From a virus: a stretch of DNA of 18,241 nt. How positions within the stretch are numbered: position 1 is the first letter of the stretch; every line of letters starts with the position of its first letter. Below, in pieces: positions 1 to 18,241 of this stretch. The DNA is taken from IMG/VR virus record IMGVR_UViG_3300045988_125687, positions 1-18,241 of that record; one strand, given 5' to 3'. The translations under genes were made by a program, and so were the position numbers. The notes below the pieces were generated by a model, which searched no databases, had not been told where the DNA came from, and was given only the letters and a program-made list of their open reading frames with translations.

Positions 1-107
1 GCGCGTCCGTCAAGCTCGAAGCCGACACCTATACGGTCAGCGTGTTCGTCGCCAAAGGGAAGACCGTGGACATCGACCTGACCCCGCGCATCCACCGGCT
101 CGACTGA
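1..107 (+). CDS. Duplicate copy of the 3' end of gene 17366..18229 (partial, artefact of the overlap)
   Basis: Identical to 18123..18229, including the TGA stop at 105-107. Confidence 0.9.
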   Translation, partial: ASVKLEADTYTVSVFVAKGKTVDIDLTPRIHRLD

Positions 108-119
108 CCCTGACCCCAC
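1..119. repeat. Terminal overlap, identical to 18123..18241 (circular-assembly redundancy)
   Basis: Base-by-base comparison of the two ends shows 119/119 identity. The repeat starts inside the coding sequence of gene 17366..18229. Confidence 0.95.
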
Positions 120-5942: not shown

Positions 5943-6317
5943 ATGGAAGACACCGAACTGGCCGCACTCATCATAGTGGTCATCTTCATCGGCATCGACT
6001 ACATCACCGGCCTCATGAAGGCCGCCATGCAGCACGACATCAGCAGCGAGAAAATGCGGCTCGGGCTCTGGCACAAAAGCGGCCTGATCCTCGTGATGCT
6101 GCTCGCCGAAATCGTGGAACGCGGCCAAGCCTATCTGGACATCGGCTACAACATGCCCCTCATCGTGCCCTCCGCCGTCTACATCAGCATCACCGAAATC
6201 AGCTCCATCCTGGAGAACCTCGGCGAGATCAACCCCGAAATAGCGAACAGCCCCCTGTTGCAATTGTTCCGCAGCGCCAAGAACACGAACGATAACGATG
6301 AAGACGGCAAGTCATGA
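5943..6317 (+). CDS. Holin (LL-H / phage_holin_4-like)
   Basis: 124 aa. It has the IDYITGLMKA motif, three or more hydrophobic helices and a charged C-terminal tail, and sits directly upstream of the endolysin. Confidence 0.8.
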   Translation: MEDTELAALIIVVIFIGIDYITGLMKAAMQHDISSEKMRLGLWHKSGLILVMLLAEIVERGQAYLDIGYNMPLIVPSAVYISITEISSILENLGEINPEIANSPLLQLFRSAKNTNDNDEDGKS

Positions 6318-6397: not shown

Positions 6398-6504
6398 GCA
6401 CCGCCGCCGACTGGCTGCTCGCCATCGGCGCGATCCTCTTCATCACCATCGTGGCCGTCGTATTCGGTATGGCCATCGCACTGTTCCTGCTCACGCTCAT
6501 CTGA
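6394..6504 (+). CDS. Tiny membrane peptide (36 aa) in the lysis cassette
   Basis: TTGA overlap with the previous stop. The hydrophobic core LLAIGAILFITIVAVVFGMAIALFLLTLI is the C-terminal part of track ORF 6298..6504. Confidence 0.4.
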   Translation: MSTAADWLLAIGAILFITIVAVVFGMAIALFLLTLI

Positions 6505-6517
6505 AAGGAAAACAACC

Positions 6518-7183
6518 ATGACAATGACAATCGACCAATTCATCCAGACCTACAACGGCAGCACCGTTGACGTCGATGGGTTCTATGGCGGCCAGTGCTG
6601 GGATCTATGGAGCCGGTACGCGCAGGACGTTGCCGGCGTACCGCAGTCGGCGACCAACACCGTCAACAATCTCGCCGGCAGCGTCTACACCAGCACATGG
6701 GACCAGCAGCCCGCATTGCGCGACAAGTTCGACCGGCTCCCCGCCGGCACCGTGCCACGCAAGGGCGATGTGGCGTTCTGGGGCAACGCCCCCGCCACCC
6801 CGGACACGCACGTGGCCATCGTCATCGCCGACCAGGGCGGCAGCCTGCTGTGCCTGACGCAGAACCCCGGAGCCACGCATCAGGCCAGCATCACCAAGGA
6901 CGGCCTGCTCGGCTACCTGCGACCCAAGACCGCCGCCCCGGCCGCGCCGAGCGGCATCGCCGGCGCGTGGCGCGTCAACGTGGCCAAGCTCAACGTGCGC
7001 GCGCAGCCGAGCACCGGCGCCCAGATCGTGGCCCAGTATTCGGCCGGCCAGACCGTCAACCTCGACGGCTGGACCGGCCGCGCGGACGGCTACGACTGGG
7101 GCCGCTACATCGGAGCCGCCAGCGGACAACACCGCTACATCGCACTGGGCCCGGCCGGCACCACCGACTATCTGACGCGCTGA
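6518..7183 (+). CDS. Endolysin: N-terminal CHAP amidase/peptidase plus C-terminal SH3b-like wall-binding domain
   Basis: 221 aa. GGQCWDLW carries the catalytic Cys and DTHVAIV the His. The C-terminus LNVRAQPSTGAQIVAQYSAGQTVNLDGW...GYDWGRY is SH3_3-like. Confidence 0.85.
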   Translation: MTMTIDQFIQTYNGSTVDVDGFYGGQCWDLWSRYAQDVAGVPQSATNTVNNLAGSVYTSTWDQQPALRDKFDRLPAGTVPRKGDVAFWGNAPATPDTHVAIVIADQGGSLLCLTQNPGATHQASITKDGLLGYLRPKTAAPAAPSGIAGAWRVNVAKLNVRAQPSTGAQIVAQYSAGQTVNLDGWTGRADGYDWGRYIGAASGQHRYIALGPAGTTDYLTR

Positions 7184-7198
7184 ACCACAGACCACGGG

Positions 7199-8029
7199 TT
7201 ACACGGCCAGTCTGACGGCATCCAACGCGCTGCGTAGCCTGCTGTCGGGCATGGCCACGTAAATCTGCGTAGTCTCCACCGACGAATGCCCGAGCAGACG
7301 TGCGACCAGGAACAGGTCGTGTGTCTGCTCGTAGGTCTTCGTCGCGTACCGGTGCCGCAGGCTGTGACAGCCCCACCCGTCCGGCAGCAACCGCGAGATA
7401 TGCCGGTTGACATAGCTTTGCTCGACATGGCCGCCCCATCGGCCGGGCAGCAGCCATCCGCCGCAATGCTCGATGTAATCGGCCAGATCGTCCGGCAGCG
7501 GCACTATGCGCTGCTTGTCGCCCTTGCCGGTGATTATCAGCGATTTGCCTAAAAGGTCGTCCATCACGTCGCGGCTGTGCACCTTCGCTATCTCGCCGCG
7601 CCTCAATCCGCACTCCGCCGCCAGTCTGACCATGACCCGCTCACGCTCGGTGGCCTTGTGCAGAGCGGCGATGATGTACTTGTCTGGGCATGGCCTCGGC
7701 TTGGGCTTGGGACGCTTGATTTTGGGGAGTTCGTCACTCGGATCGTCGCCGCGCCGGCCGGTGGTATACAGCCATCCGTAGAAGCTGCTCAGCGTGTTGC
7801 GGTATCCCTTGCGGCTTTCCGGTTTCCATTTCTGCGCCGCCATCCAATGCACCATGTCTTCAGCCGTGACTTCCAAAGGCGTCTTTGCCAGATCACGTGC
7901 GGCCTTGGTTATCTTGCAGCGCCGGCACCGCACCGTTTCGTCACTGAGACCGGCCGCCTTCAGAGATTCAAGCCAATCATTGATGTCTTCCGCCCATGAC
8001 GCCGGCGGTGGCGTTCGTTTCATGCTCAT
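7199..8029 (-). CDS. int: Tyrosine integrase (short, XerC/D-like, 276 aa)
   Basis: The C-terminal catalytic signature is present: RRGE...HSLRHRYAT...LLGHSSVETTQIYV (R, H-x-x-R, Y). It is adjacent to the attP-like tRNA fragment. The C-terminus ends in RLAV. Confidence 0.9.
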   Translation of the reverse strand: MSMKRTPPPASWAEDINDWLESLKAAGLSDETVRCRRCKITKAARDLAKTPLEVTAEDMVHWMAAQKWKPESRKGYRNTLSSFYGWLYTTGRRGDDPSDELPKIKRPKPKPRPCPDKYIIAALHKATERERVMVRLAAECGLRRGEIAKVHSRDVMDDLLGKSLIITGKGDKQRIVPLPDDLADYIEHCGGWLLPGRWGGHVEQSYVNRHISRLLPDGWGCHSLRHRYATKTYEQTHDLFLVARLLGHSSVETTQIYVAMPDSRLRSALDAVRLAV

Positions 8030-8054
8030 GGTTCACCATCACACCACCAGCACG

Positions 8055-8519
8055 CTACGCCGCTAGAATATAAGCCGATAATCGGCCGTCATGGATTTGG
8101 ACCATGTTCCTCTGGCACACCATGTTGCCAGAGGTCCATGGTTCAAATCCATGCCCCGCTACGAACGAGGATCGATAAAGATCCTTGATGAACAACCTCG
8201 GAGTGGTTAATCCACCCCGAGGTTTTTTGTTGTCTCCACGGAGTTCTGCGGACGATAAATCAGGGTTAAGCAACGTAGCCACATCCGTATTCAAGAAGTC
8301 GGCTGCAGCCTGTGTCTCGTTGATTGTCCACGTGATTTCGCTGCGCAGCTTACGCGCAATCGTTTGAGGGGCAAGACCCAGCGCATTGGCTAAGTCTTTC
8401 TTTTGAAGGTGTCGCGCCGTGATCATCAGATTCACGTTGGCGGCGACAATATCTTGTGCATTTATCTTTGCCTGCGGCATGCTCATTGTTGCTGTCATAG
8501 TTACATAATACAACGTCAT
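8055..8519 (-). CDS. XRE-family HTH immunity repressor with a long C-terminal extension ending in -LAA (virally encoded form)
   Basis: The HTH is LQKKDLANALGLAPQTIARKL. The gene is divergent from a Cro-like gene. The ORF stays open antisense through the terminator hairpin and tRNA fragment and ends SAYILAA-stop. The start is ambiguous (ATG at 8519, 8498, 8486 or 8480). Confidence 0.75.
   Translation of the reverse strand: MTLYYVTMTATMSMPQAKINAQDIVAANVNLMITARHLQKKDLANALGLAPQTIARKLRSEITWTINETQAAADFLNTDVATLLNPDLSSAELRGDNKKPRGGLTTPRLFIKDLYRSSFVAGHGFEPWTSGNMVCQRNMVQIHDGRLSAYILAA
8090..8153. repeat. 64-bp near-perfect palindrome centred on an 8-bp spacer (CACCATGT, 8118-8125); candidate attP core
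   Basis: Arms 8090-8117 and 8126-8153 match at 25/28 positions. Matching blocks are CATGGATTTG/CAAATCCATG, an ACCATG block, and CCTCTGGCA/TGCCAGAGG. Confidence 0.7.
8127..8164 (+). other. 3' portion of a tRNA gene (no 5' half): attP homology segment
   Basis: Components are GCCAG (anticodon-stem 3' strand), AGGTC (variable loop), the T-arm CATGG-TTCAAAT-CCATG, and CCCCGCT+A (acceptor 3' strand plus discriminator). No complementary 5' acceptor strand lies upstream, and the anticodon-loop geometry is non-canonical. A CAT triplet is present, but the isotype cannot be assigned. Confidence 0.6.
8196..8228 (+). terminator. Rho-independent terminator following the tRNA fragment
   Basis: CCTCGG-A-GTGG TTAAT CCAC-C-CCGAGG followed by TTTTTT (8223-8228). 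It is plus-strand oriented, as expected downstream of a tRNA gene, and lies inside the minus-strand repressor ORF. Confidence 0.65.
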
Positions 8520-8580
8520 TTTACTTTTATACGGCGTGTCTTATTTGAGACAACAGTATTTTGGCTGTAGAAAGTAACAC
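8520..8580. promoter_or_regulatory. Divergent repressor/Cro switch region
   Basis: This 61-bp AT-rich intergenic region has a mirrored motif just upstream of both start codons (minus strand TATAAAAGTAA-ATG; plus strand TGTAGAAAGTAACAC-ATG). An imperfect palindrome GTCTTATTTGAGAC lies at 8537-8550. No strong SD is present on either side, so the mRNAs may be leaderless. Confidence 0.5.
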
Positions 8581-8829
8581 ATGGTTTTAGTCTGTACGTC
8601 TGATGTCATATCGGACAGATTGAGAGAGCTAATGAGGCAACAGCACATTACCCAGCGTTCCCTTGCCTCAGAAATCGGACTGTCGTTTCAGCTTCTTAAC
8701 GCAAAGCTCCATGGCCGCGCTAATTACACTTCGCGTGACCTTGTTCGTATTGCTGATTTCTTCGATGTGAGTCTCGACTACCTGACTGGCCGTTCCGATT
8801 ACACGAAACCTTTGGAGGTTGTGTCTTGA
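8581..8829 (+). CDS. Cro-like XRE-family HTH regulator
   Basis: 82 aa. The HTH is ITQRSLASEIGLSFQLLNAKL and a DYLTG motif is present. The gene is divergent from the repressor. Confidence 0.75.
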   Translation: MVLVCTSDVISDRLRELMRQQHITQRSLASEIGLSFQLLNAKLHGRANYTSRDLVRIADFFDVSLDYLTGRSDYTKPLEVVS

Positions 8830-9023
8830 GCAGTGAGAAAGTGCCCGTGCAGGTGTCCGCGCGCGAGGGCTACAAGGTGAAGAAGTCCCGTACCGGCAAG
8901 GCCGTCATGGTATTCGGCTTCCCGATGTCGTTGGAGGAGATGGACACGGTGCGGGCTGAGTTCGAGTCCCAGCTGGCCTATCAATCGCGCATCATGCGCG
9001 AGGATCGCATGATGAGGTTCTGA
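8826..9023 (+). CDS. Hypothetical early protein (65 aa)
   Basis: The TTG start overlaps the Cro stop (TTGA). No recognisable motif. Confidence 0.45.
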   Translation: MSSEKVPVQVSAREGYKVKKSRTGKAVMVFGFPMSLEEMDTVRAEFESQLAYQSRIMREDRMMRF

Positions 9024-9028
9024 TGGTC

Positions 9029-9853
9029 TCACAGGTCCCGTTGTTCCTTGTAATCGCTGAATCGTTGTTGGCTTTCCAGGCTTCGTCTTACCCCGAGCTC
9101 GCTGGTCCAGACGATGCCGATACGGAGATCAGCGCCGGGGATGTCGACAAGATTGGCTCTTCTGCCAGCCTCGCCTTCTTCGACGATCTCTTGTCGTATG
9201 AGCGTGCCGTCGAGGATGATCTGGCCTATAGGCGGCAGACTGTCGGCGTGCCCTTCGGCTATGACCTGATCCTTGAGTCTGACGAGTACATGAACGTCGT
9301 TTGCCGTGAGGCCGCACTGATTGCGGATCGTAAGAGCGGGCATGTGGGCATCGTACTCGGCCGTCCATTCGTAGACAGTCTGGTCGCGGCTGGCACTCAA
9401 CGCTCGTTGGCTGATCAGGTTCGCGTTTTCACTTATCTGGTTCGCATTTCCTGCAAGCTCGTTGGCTCTCGTGGCGGCGTCACGGGATTCGGCGGCGATG
9501 CGGTTTGCTTCTTCCGCATGATTGTTGGCATCCTTCGCCGCCTCGTTCGCATTGTGCGTCTGGAAATACGCGACGAAGCCGACGACTACCGAAACGAGAA
9601 GCGCCAGTGCTGAAAGGATGTTATCGGCGTCAATACCGGCAATGATTTGGCCCCAGTTCACGATTCTTCCTTCCTCCGTCATCTGCGACGGTTGGTTTTT
9701 GTGCGATTCCCAGCTTACGCAGCCGGGGGAAGGAACCCTTTTCAACCATTCGACCGATGGAGGTTTGCCGTGGTTAGTCACATTCAGGTCACTCGCGAAT
9801 CTGCCGAGTATTTCTGTGTTCGCCTGTTGGATCTCTATGGGCCGCGCGCTCAT
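9029..9853 (-). CDS. Membrane-anchored coiled-coil protein (274 aa), reverse-oriented moron; candidate superinfection exclusion/defence function
   Basis: One TM helix (ILSALALLVSVVVGFVAYF) is followed by Asn/Ala heptad-like repeats (ANEAAKDAN..AEEAN..TRAN..AGNANQISENANLISQRA). The ORF is continuous across the stop of the competing plus-strand ORF. First-codon positions are purine-rich. Local GC is lower than in the structural genes. Confidence 0.55.
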   Translation of the reverse strand: MSARPIEIQQANTEILGRFASDLNVTNHGKPPSVEWLKRVPSPGCVSWESHKNQPSQMTEEGRIVNWGQIIAGIDADNILSALALLVSVVVGFVAYFQTHNANEAAKDANNHAEEANRIAAESRDAATRANELAGNANQISENANLISQRALSASRDQTVYEWTAEYDAHMPALTIRNQCGLTANDVHVLVRLKDQVIAEGHADSLPPIGQIILDGTLIRQEIVEEGEAGRRANLVDIPGADLRIGIVWTSELGVRRSLESQQRFSDYKEQRDL

Positions 9854-9929
9854 TTGGACGTAATCATCAGCGCCGATGACTTGAGTCAGTGGCGCGACCG
9901 GATCAATGAGGCTCTACAGGAGGTGGACA

Positions 9930-10142
9930 ATGTCGGTGTTTGACCCTGAGTCCAGCAGCAACCGTTTCAGTGCGGAGTTCAAGCTGACCGGCGATGCGGG
10001 GAGCCCGTATGAGTTCGGTATCCGGTTCCGCGTGGATGGTGATTATTTCGCGGTTGATGGCCTGTCGATGGGTGACATGGTTCGTATCAATCGTGAGTTC
10101 GCCAGGGTTATCAGGGAGGCGAAGCATGCACGGGTTGTATAA
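9930..10142 (+). CDS. Hypothetical early protein (70 aa)
   Basis: ATG at 9930 follows SD AGGAGG (9918-9923); this is the internal Met of track ORF 9906..10142. Confidence 0.5.
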   Translation: MSVFDPESSSNRFSAEFKLTGDAGSPYEFGIRFRVDGDYFAVDGLSMGDMVRINREFARVIREAKHARVV

Positions 10143-10290
10143 ATGCGTTCTCACGTTCTGTGCGGTGTTCGTGGGTTTGATTCTGGCCGTCATGGGTCTG
10201 TGGGCATTGGTCGGCGTCACCTGCCTGTGTGCGGGCATGGTGCTGGCGGATGTTCCCGAGCGTATCGGCGGGAGGTATGGCCATGAGTAG
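10126..10290 (+). CDS. Small two-helix membrane protein (54 aa)
   Basis: ATG at 10126 follows GGGAGGCGAAGC. Sequence MHGLYKCVLTFCAVFVGLILAVMGLWALVGVTCLCAGMVLA. Confidence 0.45.
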   Translation: MHGLYKCVLTFCAVFVGLILAVMGLWALVGVTCLCAGMVLADVPERIGGRYGHE

Positions 10291-10471
10291 GGGTGCTCCG
10301 AAGTCGATGGGTTACCGGTTCCAGTCGGTGCGCACCCGTGATGGCGTGATGCTGGTGGTCACGCCGTACACGGAGCGCGGCGACTGCATGGCGAAACTGT
10401 ATGCGTTCACGCGCGAGGAGACGCGGGCGCTGATCTCGTGTCTGGATATCCTGCCGGACGGCCCCGAGTAG
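10277..10471 (+). CDS. Hypothetical early protein (64 aa)
   Basis: ATG at 10277 (or 10283) follows GGGAGG; this is the C-terminal part of track ORF 10229..10471. Confidence 0.45.
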   Translation: MAMSRGAPKSMGYRFQSVRTRDGVMLVVTPYTERGDCMAKLYAFTREETRALISCLDILPDGPE

Positions 10472-10928
10472 CCGTTTATTTGATATTCGGCGATGTATTC
10501 GCGTGTATTTTCTCGTATTTCCGCGTGCCCGACGCTATTCGGGTCACTTGAGAATGTAATGGCTGTGATGGCGCGTATGGCTACGCCTAGCCCTACCTAT
10601 GCCCGCTGTGGTGGCGGGAAGCCGGCCGCATTGCAACTGCGGTACTTGCGAGACTAAGAGGTTGCCACCGACCCTATCCAGCCGCTGGTAAAGGCGGAAT
10701 CGGGCAGCACTACCACGCGATTGTGTGGGGCTGGATTTGGGGACCATTCCCGGCAGGCTTCGGCCTGCTCTTGCAATCGACGGCCGACCGACCGAAAGCG
10801 AGACCCACTTGAGGATTCTCGGCCGAGATTTCGCGTTGCGCGTCTCGGCCGAGAATCTTCGGGTCTTGACCTCTCCAGCACTCCCTCCCAAAAGGGACAT
10901 GAGAAACCAAGCAAGGAGATTACGGATT
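10472..10928. other. About 457-bp non-coding region dense in short repeats and hairpins (candidate origin or regulatory hub, possibly a structured RNA)
   Basis: No convincing ORF. GTATT(C/T) repeats occur at 10482-10520. Multiple stable hairpins are present, including GCAGGC-TTCG-GCCTGC at 10753-10768. ACTTGAG motifs occur three times. A twin 12-bp palindrome lies at 10817-10854. Confidence 0.5.
10811..10860. repeat. Two copies of the perfect 12-bp palindrome TCTCGGCCGAGA within a 15-bp perfect inverted repeat
   Basis: GATTCTCGGCCGAGA (10814-10828), a 14-nt spacer, then TCTCGGCCGAGAATC (10843-10857). The palindrome centres are 26 bp apart, about 70 bp upstream of the HTH gene at 10929. Confidence 0.8.
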
Positions 10929-11237
10929 ATGAGCAAGGCAACGTTCGAGCACACACTCAAGGACGCGGGAATCAGACTGCTTCCGAAGCTGAACGAGTTC
11001 GTCCGGGCGAGGAAGACCACCGAGAGCTTTCTGGTGACCATCGAGCAGATCGCGCGCTGGGCCGGACTGACCAGACGCAACGGCCGCATCGATGATAACC
11101 AGGCGTACAGGATGATGATGTTGGCCGAATGCCCGGCCTCCAAGGTGCGCCGTTACGGCATGAGATGCTGGGACGCGCGCGAGGCCATGCAGGCTTTGGC
11201 GAAGTGGACCGGCGCGTGGGCTTGGGTGGTGGACTGA
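10929..11237 (+). CDS. Hypothetical protein with a possible HTH (102 aa)
   Basis: ATG at 10929 follows SD AAGGAG (10912-10917). The segment VTIEQIARWAGLTRRN looks HTH-like. The upstream part of track ORF 10725..11237 is non-coding. Confidence 0.5.
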   Translation: MSKATFEHTLKDAGIRLLPKLNEFVRARKTTESFLVTIEQIARWAGLTRRNGRIDDNQAYRMMMLAECPASKVRRYGMRCWDAREAMQALAKWTGAWAWVVD

Positions 11238-11605
11238 TGGCGCGCACGAAACCGAGCCTTGCCGAGGCGTTGAGCCCCTGGTCCGCTCCGCATGACGCGG
11301 CCGACCTGTTGGAGGGCTTCAGACTCGCCATCAACGCACTGGCCGAGAAACAGCATACGGGGTTGCCCGATTCGATGCGCGTGTTGAAGGTCCTGCACCT
11401 GCGCAAGGGTACCGAACTGGCAGCTCTCGGCGGCGACTGGCCGGCCATGGGAGTGCGGCGTATCTGCGGCGCGTGGACGTTGGACGCACGCCAGTTCAAC
11501 CTGTGGGCGCAGGGGCGGATATCGGTGTTCCGGCGCAAGGCCGCGCAGTCTGGCCAGACGGCCCCATCGCAGGCATCGATGCAATCGAAGTTGAATCTGT
11601 TCTAG
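11237..11605 (+). CDS. Hypothetical protein (122 aa)
   Basis: The start is TGATG-coupled at 11237. No recognisable motif. Confidence 0.45.
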   Translation: MARTKPSLAEALSPWSAPHDAADLLEGFRLAINALAEKQHTGLPDSMRVLKVLHLRKGTELAALGGDWPAMGVRRICGAWTLDARQFNLWAQGRISVFRRKAAQSGQTAPSQASMQSKLNLF

Positions 11606-11614
11606 GGGGGTTGG

Positions 11615-11812
11615 ATGAATCCGAGGGCGAAGCTCACTACCGCGCAGGCGGCCACATATCTGCACAAATCGCAGCGTCAGATGGAGCGCATGAGGTCGAA
11701 TGGCACTGGTCCGGAGTGGTTCAAGGCGGGTGATGCCATCAACTCGCCGTGCCTGTACGAGCTGGCCGATCTGGATATGTGGGTGAAAACGCAGAAGGGG
11801 AAGGTGGAGTGA
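11615..11812 (+). CDS. xis: Excisionase-family / MerR-like HTH protein (HTH_17-like), candidate Xis/RDF
   Basis: 65 aa. LTTAQAATYLHKSQRQMERMRSNGTGPEWFKAG...LYELADLDMW fits the small excisionase/AlpA-type pattern. Confidence 0.6.
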   Translation: MNPRAKLTTAQAATYLHKSQRQMERMRSNGTGPEWFKAGDAINSPCLYELADLDMWVKTQKGKVE

Positions 11813-12549
11813 TGGCGAGGCGTCAGGTTGTCGGTGCGCGCGTAAGGCAGACCGTCATCGATTTGTGGGGCAATGAATGCTGGCTGAATCTGCCCGGCTG
11901 CACCAAGGTCGGTGAAGAGGATGACCATATCATTCCGTTCAAGGCCGGTGGCCAGGGCACGGTTGCGAACATCCGGCGTGCCTGCAAGCATTGCAACATC
12001 AGCCGAAGCAATCGCGTGCTGTCGGGCTATGGGGCCACGTTGCATGTGGTCATGGGGCCTCCGTGCGCGGGCAAGAGCTCGTATGTGGCCGAACATGCCG
12101 GCAACGGCGCGCTTATCCTGGACTTCGACCGTTTGGCCGAAGCGTTGATGCTTGACGTGGATGTGAAGCACGAGGCCACTGGCCCGCTCGTGGCCACGGC
12201 GCAAGGGGCTTGGCAGGGTGCCTATAACAAGCTCGCCAGAATGAACGCGCCGGTCGAGGTGTGGCTTATCAAGTCATTGCCGTCCACTCGCGCGCACCCG
12301 CGCCTGTTGGATGAATGGCTGGCCCTTGACTACGAGCTGCATGTGGTGGACCCCGGCGCATCCATGGTGTTCGACCGGCTCACTGCCGAGCATCGCAACG
12401 AGGGTGCGAAGCTCACGGCAAGGCAATGGTATTCGCTCCATCTCACGCAGGAATTGCTGGACGCGAGGCAGCGTGCGCGACGCGCCAGACTCGCGGCGCT
12501 CGGTTTGCGCGATCAATGCGAACGAATCGACGCGCGGCCGCAATGGTAG
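11812..12549 (+). CDS. HNH endonuclease domain fused to a P-loop NTPase/kinase-like domain
   Basis: The start is TGATG-coupled at 11812; 245 aa. The N-terminus is CWLNLPGC...DHIIP...N...CKHCN (HNH). This is followed by GPPCAGKSS (Walker A) and ALILDFD (Walker B-like). It lies immediately upstream of the terminase genes. Confidence 0.7.
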   Translation: MARRQVVGARVRQTVIDLWGNECWLNLPGCTKVGEEDDHIIPFKAGGQGTVANIRRACKHCNISRSNRVLSGYGATLHVVMGPPCAGKSSYVAEHAGNGALILDFDRLAEALMLDVDVKHEATGPLVATAQGAWQGAYNKLARMNAPVEVWLIKSLPSTRAHPRLLDEWLALDYELHVVDPGASMVFDRLTAEHRNEGAKLTARQWYSLHLTQELLDARQRARRARLAALGLRDQCERIDARPQW

Positions 12550-12672
12550 TCGCTTTTTTTAAACGACCGGCCAGCCAAAAGACCCCGCGCCAAGTTTTTT
12601 TCTCTCTCGAAACGAGCAAAAAAAAACTTGAAAACGGCGGAATAACAACGAAAACAGGAGATTGAAAAAATA
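12550..12672. promoter_or_regulatory. AT-rich homopolymer-tract intergenic region upstream of the packaging genes (candidate cos/pac or late promoter region)
   Basis: Tracts are T7 (12554-12560), T7 (12595-12601), A9 (12618-12626) and A6 (12665-12670). An imperfect long inverted repeat AAGTTTTTTT...CTCG-AAA-CGAG...AAAAAAAAACTT is present. The composition contrasts sharply with the flanking GC-rich DNA. Confidence 0.4.
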
Positions 12673-12981
12673 ATGAGTCAGGAAACCTTGCCAGGCTTCG
12701 AGGCCTACGACAACATCATGGCGGGGCTTCAGGAAAAAGCGACGACGGAACTGATACAGGACTTCGTGTGTGGCCGCAATCTTAATTCACGCGCCGTGTT
12801 CATTTGCAAGACGATGGTGAACATCGCGCGCAATTTCGACGTATTGAACGCCAAGGGACGTGATACCAGCCGTGTCATGGGTCAGTTGCTCTTGTGGTTC
12901 CAGGAGCTCAACGAGATGTTTCCGGCAGAGAAGGAAGTCAACCCCGCCCTTGCCGGACTGCTGCAGAAGGCGAAAGCATGA
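12673..12981 (+). CDS. Putative small terminase subunit (by position)
   Basis: 102 aa. SD AGGAG lies upstream and the gene is ATGA-coupled to TerL. No motif is recognised. Confidence 0.45.
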   Translation: MSQETLPGFEAYDNIMAGLQEKATTELIQDFVCGRNLNSRAVFICKTMVNIARNFDVLNAKGRDTSRVMGQLLLWFQELNEMFPAEKEVNPALAGLLQKAKA

Positions 12982-14509: not shown

Positions 14510-15631
14510 ATGAACAACCTGAGTCTCTGGGATCGTATGAAGCTCGCCGGGCGTATCCTGACCCGCAGTGATGCGGATGATATGCCCGAGGGCATCAGGC
14601 CGCCCAGCCGCGAGCCGGTGTGCGACCCGTTGAGCCTGTCCACCGTGTTTCGTGGAGTCCAGGTGCTGCAGACCGCGATAACCGGTCTGCCGATCCACGA
14701 GATGCGCGGCGGGTTGAAGCTCGACACCGTGAGCTCACTGATCCTCCAACCCGACGTGCACCGAAGCCGCCGCGACTTCCTCGCCGACATGGTGGCCAGC
14801 ATGGTATTGGACGGCAACGCTTTCGTTCGACTCGTGCGATACGCCGGCGAAGTCGTGACCTGCGAGGTGCTGCCGCCCTCGCTCGTGACTGTCTCGGACG
14901 ACGGCAAGGACCCAGCGGCGCCGAAGCTCCGTTACTCGTATCTCGGTGTGGACTACACGGCCGACCAGATCGTGCACTGCAAGTTTTTGAACGTGCCCGG
15001 TCGACTGCGAGGCCTCGGCCCCATCGGCGCGGCACGCGAGGAAGTCGAAAGCGCGCAGCAGGCGCGGGATTACAAGGCCCGCTTCTACACCGATTCCAGC
15101 AACCTCAAGGGCTACCTGTCCTCCGAGGACAAGGTGACGCCCGACATCGCCAGGAACGCGAAAGAGGCATGGAAGGCCACCGGAACCGCAGGCGACATCA
15201 AGGTGCTGGGCAGCAAGCTGAAATACGTGCCGCTGGACATGAAGCCGGCCGACTTGCAGTTTTTGGAAACCCAGAAGTTCGACACCACGCAGATCGCGCG
15301 ACTGTTGGGCATTCCCGCGTCCATCATGCTCGCCGCAGTCGATGGCAGCAATCTCACCTATTCGAACATCGAGCAAAGCTGGATTGAGTTCGCCGACTAC
15401 ACGCTGGCCGCCTACGCGGGCGAGATAGAGGAACTGTTCAACAGACTGCTGCCACGAGGCCGCACCGCCGCGTTCGACTGGGATTCAAGTCGCCGCGCCG
15501 ACATGAGCGACCGTTTCAACGCCTACAAGACCGCCCTCGAATCAGGATGGATGGAAATTAACGAGGTGCGCGCACGCGAGGCCCTGCCCCCGCTCATCAA
15601 CGCGCCGCAACCGGAAGAGGTGAACCAGTGA
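14510..15631 (+). CDS. Portal protein (HK97 family)
   Basis: 373 aa from ATG 14510 (MNNLSLWDRMK...). Size, position and sequence style fit HK97-type portals. The track start at 14291 would overlap TerL by 133 nt and read through the tandem repeat. Confidence 0.8.
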   Translation: MNNLSLWDRMKLAGRILTRSDADDMPEGIRPPSREPVCDPLSLSTVFRGVQVLQTAITGLPIHEMRGGLKLDTVSSLILQPDVHRSRRDFLADMVASMVLDGNAFVRLVRYAGEVVTCEVLPPSLVTVSDDGKDPAAPKLRYSYLGVDYTADQIVHCKFLNVPGRLRGLGPIGAAREEVESAQQARDYKARFYTDSSNLKGYLSSEDKVTPDIARNAKEAWKATGTAGDIKVLGSKLKYVPLDMKPADLQFLETQKFDTTQIARLLGIPASIMLAAVDGSNLTYSNIEQSWIEFADYTLAAYAGEIEELFNRLLPRGRTAAFDWDSSRRADMSDRFNAYKTALESGWMEINEVRAREALPPLINAPQPEEVNQ

Positions 15632-17369: not shown

Positions 17370-18229
17370 CCACCATCAGCATCACCGGGAAACAACCGGG
17401 GAAAACCGCCGTGACGATATCCAGCACCGTCAACCCAGCGGTAAAAACCGTCGTGCCGGTCACGGTGCTCTCACGTAACCTGCTCTCCTACGGTCCAGCG
17501 TCGGGCGACGGGCTGACCGCCACCATCAACGGCGACGGCTCGCTGCACATCAAGGGCACGCCGACAAGACAGTGGACTGGCCTGTCGTGGAAGTTCCCAT
17601 GCCCAGTGCATGGCATCGTGACATTCGGCGGCACCACCATCAGTGGTTTGGGCGGCGTCATCAAATGCCTCGACGGTGACGGACGGCAGCTGGGCAGCCA
17701 GATCACCGTGGGCAGCAATGGCGTCGCAATCCCCGATGGCACCGTCAGCCTGCAACTCAACATCCTGGCCACCGAGACCACGCCCACCATGAAGGACGGC
17801 GACATCCGAATCCAACTCGAATCCGGGGACACCGTGCACGAGTGGATGAAACCGGACGACACAAGCCTTGAGGGGGGGGGCTATGAGCTAGCGAACCTTG
17901 TGCCCTCGTTCACCTCCATATTGCCCAAGACCGTGGAGGGCGTCACGTTCACCAGCACGGACGGGCACACCATCCACGCGAAGGGCACGGCGACCGCGTG
18001 GGCGCACGTCGGCGTATCCGTGCGACTGGACGCGGGCACCTACATGCTCACGTGCGACAACAGCAACGGCTGGAATTACGGATGTCAGTTCCTCGGCGGC
18101 AATAACAACGCGCAGCTGGGCGGCGCGTCCGTCAAGCTCGAAGCCGACACCTATACGGTCAGCGTGTTCGTCGCCAAAGGGAAGACCGTGGACATCGACC
18201 TGACCCCGCGCATCCACCGGCTCGACTGA
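17366..18229 (+). CDS. Surface/decoration or adhesin-like protein: Ig-like C-terminal half followed by two tandem jelly-roll/CBM-like domains
   Basis: 287 aa. The N-terminus ISITGKQPGKTAVTISSTVNPAVKTVVPVTVL resembles the second half of a Big_2 domain. An internal duplication follows (GLTATINGDGSLHIKGTPT... versus GVTFTSTDGHTIHAKGTAT...). Confidence 0.6.
   Translation: MTTISITGKQPGKTAVTISSTVNPAVKTVVPVTVLSRNLLSYGPASGDGLTATINGDGSLHIKGTPTRQWTGLSWKFPCPVHGIVTFGGTTISGLGGVIKCLDGDGRQLGSQITVGSNGVAIPDGTVSLQLNILATETTPTMKDGDIRIQLESGDTVHEWMKPDDTSLEGGGYELANLVPSFTSILPKTVEGVTFTSTDGHTIHAKGTATAWAHVGVSVRLDAGTYMLTCDNSNGWNYGCQFLGGNNNAQLGGASVKLEADTYTVSVFVAKGKTVDIDLTPRIHRLD
17872..17880 (+). repeat. G9 homopolymer inside gene 17366..18229
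   Basis: Nine consecutive G bases encode the GGG linker (LEGGGY) between the two repeated domains. Confidence 0.95.
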
Positions 18230-18241
18230 CCCTGACCCCAC
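18123..18241. repeat. Terminal overlap, identical to 1..119
   Basis: Same as the 1..119 entry. Confidence 0.95.

Follow-up and report, generated by a model that had tools for sequence, protein, structure and literature searches.

A candidate integration-dependent immunity switch in a naturally excised 18.1-kb Bifidobacterium phage genome

Background

Mycobacteriophages BPs, Brujita and Charlie (Clusters G, I, N and P) carry a system of integration-dependent immunity (Broussard et al. 2013, as summarised in PMC3694055 and PMC4557955), in which int, rep and cro form a cassette, the phage attachment site attP lies inside the repressor gene rep, the viral repressor is tagged and degraded, and the truncated prophage repressor is stable; a tagged integrase and the lack of an excisionase (Xis) are further features (PMC3694055, PMC4557955). 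Two Bifidobacterium breve prophages, Bb423phi2 (18,221 bp) and 689b-1 (18,260 bp), have int at attL and rep at attR, and in their viral form, reconstructed in silico, the repressor gains 18 C-terminal residues with an ssrA-like ClpX motif (Mavrich et al. 2018, Sci Rep 8:12772; PMC6109161). Here we analyse the IMG/VR virus record IMGVR_UViG_3300045988_125687, a stretch of 18,241 nt referred to at its full length as the window, in which the immunity repressor gene (8055-8519, minus strand) contains a tRNA-derived attP and ends in codons for an ssrA-like -LAA. To our knowledge, integration-dependent immunity is the simplest lysis/lysogeny switch known, and mycobacteriophages are the only phages in which it has been proven experimentally. 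We consider that the window uses a switch of the BPs/Brujita type, with a probability of roughly 0.8.

Viral and prophage forms of the repressor

The repressor gene in its viral form encodes 154 amino acids (aa) from the first ATG and matches helix-turn-helix (HTH) and repressor families over residues 21-90 (PHROG 4583; Pfam HTH_26/BetR); in homologues, gene callers place the start at 8486 or 8480, which would give a protein of 143 or 141 aa. The gene for a tyrosine integrase (int, 276 aa, 7199-8029, minus strand) begins 25 nt downstream of the repressor stop and is co-directional with it, and a divergent cro-like HTH_3 gene (8581-8829, plus strand), which opens the rightward, lytic transcript, lies on the other side of a short control region (8520-8580, longer if the repressor starts at 8486), so that the whole makes up a compact cassette. 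The order int(-), attP, repressor(-), cro-like(+) had been proposed in a first-pass annotation of the sequence and was borne out by searches of open reading frames (ORFs) and domains. The repressor ORF also ends as read there, in SAYILAA and a stop: its C-terminus is ...GRLSAYILAA, with the minus-strand codons CTA GCG GCG TAG at 8066-8055. The virus-only C-terminal extension, NMVCQRNMVQIHDGRLSAYILAA followed by the stop, occupies 8055-8126 on the minus strand, and its ssrA-like L-A-A codons are located at 8058-8066. From its N-terminus, therefore, the viral repressor consists of an HTH domain, a linker, the antisense-tRNA codons VAGHGFEPWTSG and a 23-residue tail ending -ILAA. In an AlphaFold2 model, residues 19-96, corresponding to the HTH domain, have a predicted local distance difference test score (pLDDT) of ca. 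78, and residues 97-154 have a score below 50; according to this model the region 97-154 is probably disordered, which would fit an accessible degron.

The common core of attP and the bacterial attachment site attB, CCAGAGGTCCATGGTTCAAATCCATGCCCCGCTAC (8128-8162, plus strand), lies inside the repressor ORF, as had been claimed for attP. It matches the 3' part of the initiator tRNA-Met of the host at every base. These 35 bp cover the 3' strand of the anticodon stem, the variable loop, the T arm and the 3' strand of the acceptor stem; a whole tRNA was not detected in the window by ARAGORN, as is to be expected where attP holds only a fragment. A longer segment, 8090-8164, had been regarded as tRNA-derived. 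A real stretch of tRNA is present in the ORF, but it is narrower than that, 8128-8162, and the part at 8090-8117 is an inverted copy belonging to a palindrome that is described below.

A protein 99 % identical to the window repressor (P0002) has 121 aa and ends ...GFEPWTSGL*. Its gene is found at the phage/host boundary in two independent assemblies (L001 and L002), with cro, HNH, portal and capsid genes on the phage side and, on the host side, a gene of the HTS family, the equivalent of what the literature calls metA, and after it the ATP-synthase operon. ARAGORN detected a tRNA-Met(CAT) antisense over the 3' end of the P0002 gene, which we take to be the initiator tRNA, as it starts with CGCGGGG, is mismatched between positions 1 and 72 and has three G:C pairs in the anticodon stem. 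The 3' end of the lysogen repressor gene reads ...ACC TCT GGG TTA TGA, the TGA being the reverse complement of U33-C34-A35 in the anticodon loop. Since the window and the junction sequence part immediately left of 8128 and the junction form ends in TSGL*, integration exchanges the 23-residue tail for a single Leu, with a net loss of 22 residues. The earlier proposal that the crossover removes some 23 codons, including those for -LAA, is consistent with this 121-aa junction protein; the crossover does not fall outside the ORF, and the C-terminus is truncated at the junction and not left in full.

Short forms ending GFEPWTSGL are located on contigs of 162-360 kb from NCBI Bifidobacterium genomes, whereas long forms are located on contigs of ~18-25 kb or on viral contigs, with int directly after them. 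Pairs of this kind, of a short prophage form and a long viral form, were seen in about a dozen repressor lineages. The long extension of the window type is present in a protein cluster of 74 members (P0001) and in the IMG/VR contig L073, and the equivalent junction of other lineages is present in hundreds of members, for instance in P0050, with 214.

It could be argued that the attP configuration is an artefact, produced by a mis-assembly that joined prophage ends or by a frameshift that created the long ORF. The window is a metagenome-style assembly with a terminal overlap of 119 nt, and palindromes are error-prone, rare single-member frameshift variants being found (P0040, P0059 and L069). 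But the same junction and extension recur across the 74-member cluster and in independent IMG/VR, ENA and Logan contigs, the equivalent junction has the wide distribution just mentioned, and real attL and attR sites recombined in silico render the same structure, so that we regard an artefact as very improbable; a sequencing error as the origin of the long form is likewise discarded by the recurrence of this form in that cluster and in independent contigs. The open frame itself carries less weight: 65 codons without a stop past the HTH domain are obtained in 4-12 % of the sequences made by shuffling or with a Markov model. Because an open frame in a single sequence is thus no more than weakly improbable (p ~0.04-0.12), the case is built on the comparison with relatives.

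Position of the crossover

Polymorphisms between the two junctions of the same prophage delimit the exchange. In the Bifidobacterium cebidarum prophage (L003) the tRNA side reads GGTCCATGG and the int side GGAACATGG, the published att sites of Bb423phi2 differ from each other (CCATGG vs CCTTGG; PMC6109161), and in relatives that target an elongator tRNA (L004 and L006) attL and attR differ at the second base of the T loop. In all three sets the tRNA-side copy has the host bases and the int-side copy has the phage bases, which places the exchange within 8128-8162 and 3' of 8135-8136. As judged from these sequences, the crossover would span from the T loop to the acceptor stem, roughly 8144-8162. 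The first-pass annotation had placed it near 8118-8125, a position that has to be abandoned, since it corresponds to the palindrome spacer, which is absent from attB and varies in length between lineages. A crossover in the anticodon loop was considered too, and rejected on account of the variable-loop/T-stem polymorphisms at both junctions.

Several observations were made at the rebuilt or rearranged junctions. In lysogens of the window type, L001 (10325-10399) and L002 (9490-9564), the rebuilt tRNA (its end corresponding to window positions 8160-8166) ends ...GCTACGAACG, with phage CGA in place of host CCA. The B. cebidarum prophage and the published att sites retain the encoded CCA. The initiator tRNA of a lysogen of the window type would need 3' trimming and CCA addition. 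In an ENA scaffold of 221,313 bp (L008; 78,759-91,031) a rep-attP-int junction in viral configuration is found internally, which could represent either a tandem lysogen or a scaffolding chimera. In two proteins from ENA metagenomes (P0054 and P0060), ...GFEPWTSG is joined without a break to integrase sequence, from the C-terminal third of such a protein (YLFPGRFGGHVEESY...AAVRLI), which suggests deletions from the att core to a site within int.

Selection on the C-terminal end of the viral repressor

Occurrences of the antisense-tRNA 32-mer were classed across the listed matches of an IMG/VR scan, the loci already described and the window. Among the matches listed there are at least 130 occurrences, comprising at least 99 in the prophage form ending SGL*, at least 24 in a viral configuration ending L-A/T-A, at least five ending -ALVD with a different integrase and no palindrome, one that is frameshifted with an immediate stop (L069) and one cut by a contig end. 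The 24 viral forms contain 10 distinct extension sequences that fall into about six families with little or no mutual similarity: NMV.QR..VQIH......ILAA, NVVAQRSTVQIHEARLFDFILAA, YPRGPRSKPMPRLILSLAA, DTRGPRFKSM...L.L[AT]A, FLDGPRGPRFTSMTTLKPNVILAA and ATPRPMVQIHAGLSRLSLILAA.

The long forms part right after ...TSG, yet nearly all of them end in L-A/T-A. Their terminal codons vary synonymously (CTA or TTA for Leu; GCG, GCC, GCT or GCA for Ala), as do the stops (TAA, TAG and TGA), and the single nonsynonymous change detected in the terminal codons among these matches is from Ala to Thr. The second arm of the palindrome is conserved as DNA and translated in two frames, giving VQIH in one and RFKSM in the other; between this arm and the LAA codons there are 23 or 26 nt in one of the frames and 18, 24, 27 or 30 nt in the other, and LAA is always in frame.

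An independent test was provided by recombining attL and attR in silico for four genome-borne prophages, whose prophage forms lack the viral ends. The reconstructed viral repressor ends in -FILAA in B. cebidarum (L003), whose target is the initiator tRNA-Met, and in -FTLAA and -LILAA, respectively, in B. saguini (L004) and B. reuteri (L006), whose target is the elongator tRNA-Met. The sequence comparison indicates that selection at the protein level maintains the terminal -LAA in many lineages and with either of two tRNA targets.

A number of observations weigh against the reading of -LAA as a degron in an integration-dependent switch. The fourth reconstructed prophage, of B. vansinderenii (L005, elongator tRNA-Met), ends in -VLTLAD. 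The five contigs whose viral form ends in -ALVD carry another integrase module and no palindrome, and the LAA-type attP-int modules of L079, L052, L124 and L127 are not fused to a repressor ORF. The extension families, moreover, are not fully independent samples, because they share the DNA ancestry YTAGCNGCN. The C-termini of the integrases are hydrophobic or small, with no conserved ssrA-like motif, and neither excision nor induction of Bb423phi2 was seen by Mavrich et al. (PMC6109161). These cases can be described further. In the reconstructed attP of L005 the second palindrome arm is a diverged T-arm-like sequence, and the tag of this prophage may be inactivated. In L028, L044, L046, L089 and L129, all from IMG/VR, the other attP-int module is placed at the same tRNA core and the frame ends -WALVD; the integrase of this module has 274 aa and ends -TLQA, and L028 and L044 lack a fused repressor ORF on its upstream side. 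The -WALVD modules either depart from the tag rule or follow another regulatory design. In L124 and L127 a 360-aa HTH protein ends ahead of the core, in L124 (2858-4200) by ca. 136 nt, and in L124 a stop codon falls four codons before VAGHG; this contig also encodes a plasmid-type replication protein (Rep_OBD). Since LAA-type modules exist that are unfused to a repressor, the tail can persist untranslated for a time, and the switch is not in use in every relative.

According to these observations it could be proposed that the long and short repressors are equally stable and active, that immunity is independent of integration, and that the -LAA end has no proteolytic role. Besides the weak improbability of the open frame in a single sequence, the endings -ALVD and -LAD of some relatives and the persistence of the LAA-coding tail in unfused modules, a conserved DNA motif, YTAGCGGCG, located just upstream of int, could act at the DNA or RNA level. 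We consider this unlikely, however, given that the L-A/T-A codons and the stops vary synonymously save for one Ala-to-Thr change, that both reading frames of the palindrome return to the LAA register, and that the same ending is found in phages that target different tRNAs and have unrelated extensions. In addition, a homologous integrase and an identical gene order are found in systems in which control of repressor stability by the tag has been shown experimentally. A scan of viral contigs with the published att sequence of a transfer-messenger RNA (tmRNA) rendered jumbo-phage tRNA arrays and one non-bifidobacterial tmRNA; a Bifidobacterium tmRNA tag was not found in it.

Palindrome and hairpins within the repressor gene

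The attP region contains a near-perfect palindrome with arms of 28 nt, 8090-8117 and 8126-8153, separated by a spacer of 8 nt (8118-8125). Its left arm (8090-8117, plus strand) repeats the variable loop and T arm of the tRNA in inverted orientation and pairs with 8126-8153, the right arm alone being in tRNA orientation; the left arm encodes the 'MVQIH' part of the extension. The predicted fold has -45.6 kcal/mol (z = -9.6), and a T-arm-like 17-mer has exactly two copies in the window against none expected by chance. The palindrome is kept in nearly all LAA-type attPs examined, whatever the reading frame, with a distance of 5-14 nt between the inter-arm motifs CCTCTGG and CCAGAGG across lineages. 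In phages that target an elongator tRNA the palindrome is rebuilt from the cognate T arm, and bases in which a phage deviates from the tRNA recur, mirrored, in both arms. The palindrome was also located in L003 (20620-20700), L004 (~20690-20752), L008 (6168-6260) and L012 (592-670). No large palindrome was found in the attP of BPs or of Gordonia phage EricDab, and searching the text of Mavrich et al. 2018 (PMC6109161) rendered no mention of an attP palindrome. The palindrome could provide accessory integrase sites, form an RNA hairpin or be the result of mere homogenisation of the arms.

Two hairpins are located at either side of the palindrome. The first-pass annotation had noted that the ORF runs antisense through a terminator hairpin and a tRNA T arm, and both elements are found inside it. 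The hairpin (8191-8227) and its T-run form a terminator-like element at 8191-8233 on the plus strand (-22.8 kcal/mol, z = -4.7), which was folded explicitly because the terminator scan missed it owing to one internal mismatch. This intrinsic-terminator-like element is placed so as to terminate the tRNA gene rebuilt on integration. A second, smaller hairpin, GGCCGA-TTA-TCGGCT followed by TATATT (8073-8087, minus strand), is located in the tail-coding region just upstream of the LAA codons and was called terminator-like by the scan. If it terminated transcripts, a non-stop repressor mRNA and limited read-through into int would result.

These elements raise the possibility that the virus-specific 3' region acts mainly as nucleic acid. 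The palindrome and the hairpin at 8087-8073 with its T-rich tract would then either offer binding architecture to the integrase or act in the RNA, where a hairpin, a terminator or a target for RNase could limit read-through into int or give a non-stop mRNA, and the repressor would be lost through mRNA processing or tmRNA tagging. The high stability of the palindrome (-45 to -52 kcal/mol, z = -7 to -10), its retention regardless of frame and in spite of the variable motif spacing, its rebuilding from the cognate T arm where another tRNA is targeted, the mirroring of tRNA deviations in both arms and the terminator-like hairpin ahead of the LAA codons are in favour of such a role. A nucleic-acid role leaves unexplained, however, the conservation of the L-A-A-stop codons and the compensation of frame. 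The palindrome, moreover, is not needed for this kind of switch, because BPs and EricDab have the architecture without it. As an account of the region by itself, a nucleic-acid role is therefore quite unlikely, although it and a degron role are not mutually exclusive.

Exchange of modules at the core

The nucleotide match between L001 and the window is confined to 8128-8819, that is, to rep and cro (96.5 %), whereas L073 matches the window at 7213-8162, which comprises int and the palindrome (98.4 %), with an additional, weaker match of 78 % within 14583-15496; the breakpoints at 8128 and 8162 coincide exactly with the limits of the att core. One repressor family is found with different tail families, and one tail family with different repressors; since they combine freely, the tag appears to travel with the int-attP module. 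We tentatively propose, with the odds somewhat against it, that the degron is part of a portable cassette made up of tag, palindromic attP and int, for which the antisense-tRNA core would offer a universal point of in-frame splicing. Recombination there, which the integrase would probably mediate between co-resident or tandem prophages, would put about a dozen unrelated HTH repressors under integration-dependent control or free them from it. In this same proposal the inverted T-arm copy would be either an attP design that is new for arm-less integrases or an element that controls repressor-int expression as RNA. This copy co-varies with the target tRNA and is not present in the mycobacterial and Gordonia systems examined (BPs and EricDab).

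The integrase

In the window integrase the only Pfam match is PF00589, with no arm-binding domain. The protein shows 42-46 % identity (E 1e-53 to 1e-60), across 93-96 % of its length, with the gene 32 products of Cluster G mycobacteriophages and with integrases of Gordonia phages of Cluster CW, phages for which this switch is known or predicted. It ends in -VRLAV, and this hydrophobic RLAV tail had been pointed out in the first-pass annotation. The tail turned out not to be informative, as homologues end in LGA, LSA, LAG, LVG, LQA, RLI or LDV and one of them has an unrelated tail of 14 residues.

Proposed operation of the switch

As the sequence comparison shows, the free phage encodes the long repressor, whose gene reads through attP. 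The small, arm-less integrase recombines the 35-bp core with the 3' end of the initiator tRNA-Met gene beside metA. In the integrated state the repressor gene reads into the host half of the tRNA and stops at the TGA, yielding a protein that ends in ...TSGL and lacks the tail; the phage provides a new tRNA 3' end and the terminator, and int comes to lie at the opposite end of the prophage, away from the repressor promoter. By analogy with BPs and in view of the conservation of the tag, the -LAA tail would target the viral repressor for proteolysis of the ClpXP type, so that stable immunity would be attained only after integration. The supply of integrase, again by analogy with BPs, would set the frequency of lysogeny and the direction of recombination. 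This mechanistic reading is supported with high confidence at the sequence level, and at the functional level it is supported by the analogy and by tag conservation.

Genome and gene layout

An exact direct repeat of 119 nt is present at both ends of the window (1-119 and 18123-18241). Because of this terminal overlap in a contig of 18,241 bases, the assembly corresponds to a circle of 18,122 bp in the excised (attP) state. The phage, a small temperate siphophage of Bifidobacterium, is represented in the window by its whole genome, circular and excised. Pfam searches with the window proteins detected an HNH protein, a portal and a capsid-protease fusion (Peptidase_S78 plus Phage_capsid_4); the capsid is 83-94 % identical to prophage capsids of five Bifidobacterium species, whose genus also includes genomes with annotated homologues of the window repressor. 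A holin (5943-6317) and an endolysin (6518-7183) are encoded on the plus strand ahead of int. A megablast of 6500-9100 against GenBank phages gave no match, so that no close isolated relative is available among them.

A simple scan of 7100-8900 detected no sigma-70 consensus promoter. Among the larger ORFs scanned over 8826-12981 there was no excisionase-like Pfam match, a weak negative given that small unannotated ORFs may lie there. Just after cro, a 274-aa ORF (9029-9853, minus strand) runs against the early genes around it, which read rightward; Pfam gave no match for it and PHROG marginal ones only, and in L001 and L002 the equivalent position holds an ORF of 198-217 aa that is likewise inverted. 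The 8-bp inversion site CAGGGTTA, reported for this phage group, has two copies in the window, which are direct repeats and do not fall among the structural genes.

Comparison with known systems

The features that characterise integration-dependent immunity at the level of sequence are found in the window, apart from a conserved ssrA-like motif at the integrase C-termini. Like BPs, it presents a lysis cassette, int(-), rep(-) with attP inside and cro(+) in the same order. The antisense T-arm codons of the repressor read EGFEPP in BPs and GFEPW in the window, the prophage form is shorter than the viral one (103 vs 136 aa in BPs, 121 vs 143 aa in the window), the integrases are homologous (42 % over 96 % of the length), and no Xis was recognised, in the window among the larger ORFs over 8826-12981. 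The two differ in that the tag of BPs is non-canonical (...LDKAS) and that of the window near-canonical (-LAA), and in that the attP of BPs lacks a large palindrome. With regard to the mycobacterial systems in general, their host branch is not that of the Bifidobacteriales or the gut, and the window genome is less than half the size; experiments on proteolysis, on the effects of tag mutants and on integrase dependence come only from those systems.

The Gordonia phages of Cluster CW have the closest integrases among isolated phages (44-46 %), tiny genomes, and rep and int adjacent and co-directional. In EricDab, a member of this cluster, the repressor contains the antisense T-arm codons RDSNPEP and ends in -WAA, and the integrase ends in -AAAA. 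They differ from the window in their hosts, in the target tRNA, in the lack of an attP palindrome (EricDab) and in having distantly related structural genes, and a gene annotated as 'excise' adjoins the repressor of EricDab.

A further close system is the group of Bb423phi2 and 689b-1. Genome size is similar (18,221 and 18,260 vs 18,122 bp), attB is a tRNA-Met by metA, the window core shares 35 of the 39 published att bases, and the capsid-protease fusion, portal, HNH, small lysis cassette, rep and int are held in common, as compared by published description. The YPRGPR...LSLAA proteins found here, with 131 aa against 113 aa in the short form, fit the 18 extra residues published for that group. 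The window belongs to a related but separate lineage and differs in a repressor that is only 65-69 % identical to a B. breve prophage repressor, with a linker insertion that holds the terminator hairpin, in a tail that is another 23-residue sequence (...ILAA), and in the phage-supplied tRNA 3' end, which has no encoded CCA. It is, moreover, an observed excised circle, whereas the viral form in that paper was reconstructed in silico.

The first-pass annotation regarded this type of switch as undescribed for such small phages, but it was predicted in 2018 for the same group of ~18-kb tRNA-Met bifidoprophages (PMC6109161). The window is therefore a further, well-supported case of a switch already known in kind, and the concept of integration-dependent immunity itself remains unchanged. 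Together with the many long-form contigs of metagenomes, it shows that the viral configuration predicted in 2018 exists in nature in the form of an excised circular genome, these prophages having been called 'cryptic' with no excision observed, and the abundance of long forms in metagenomes thus adds modest new evidence for the activity of these small phages. The group provides a good and very compact (18 kb) model for temperate phages of a key infant-gut genus, as well as a source of simple tRNA-targeting integrases and of repressors predicted to be degron-controlled for Bifidobacterium genetics. With respect to the systems already described, what is new here is the naturally excised circle of 18.1 kb, the conserved palindromic attP, and the exchange, at the core, of repressor modules and of modules made up of tag, attP and int.

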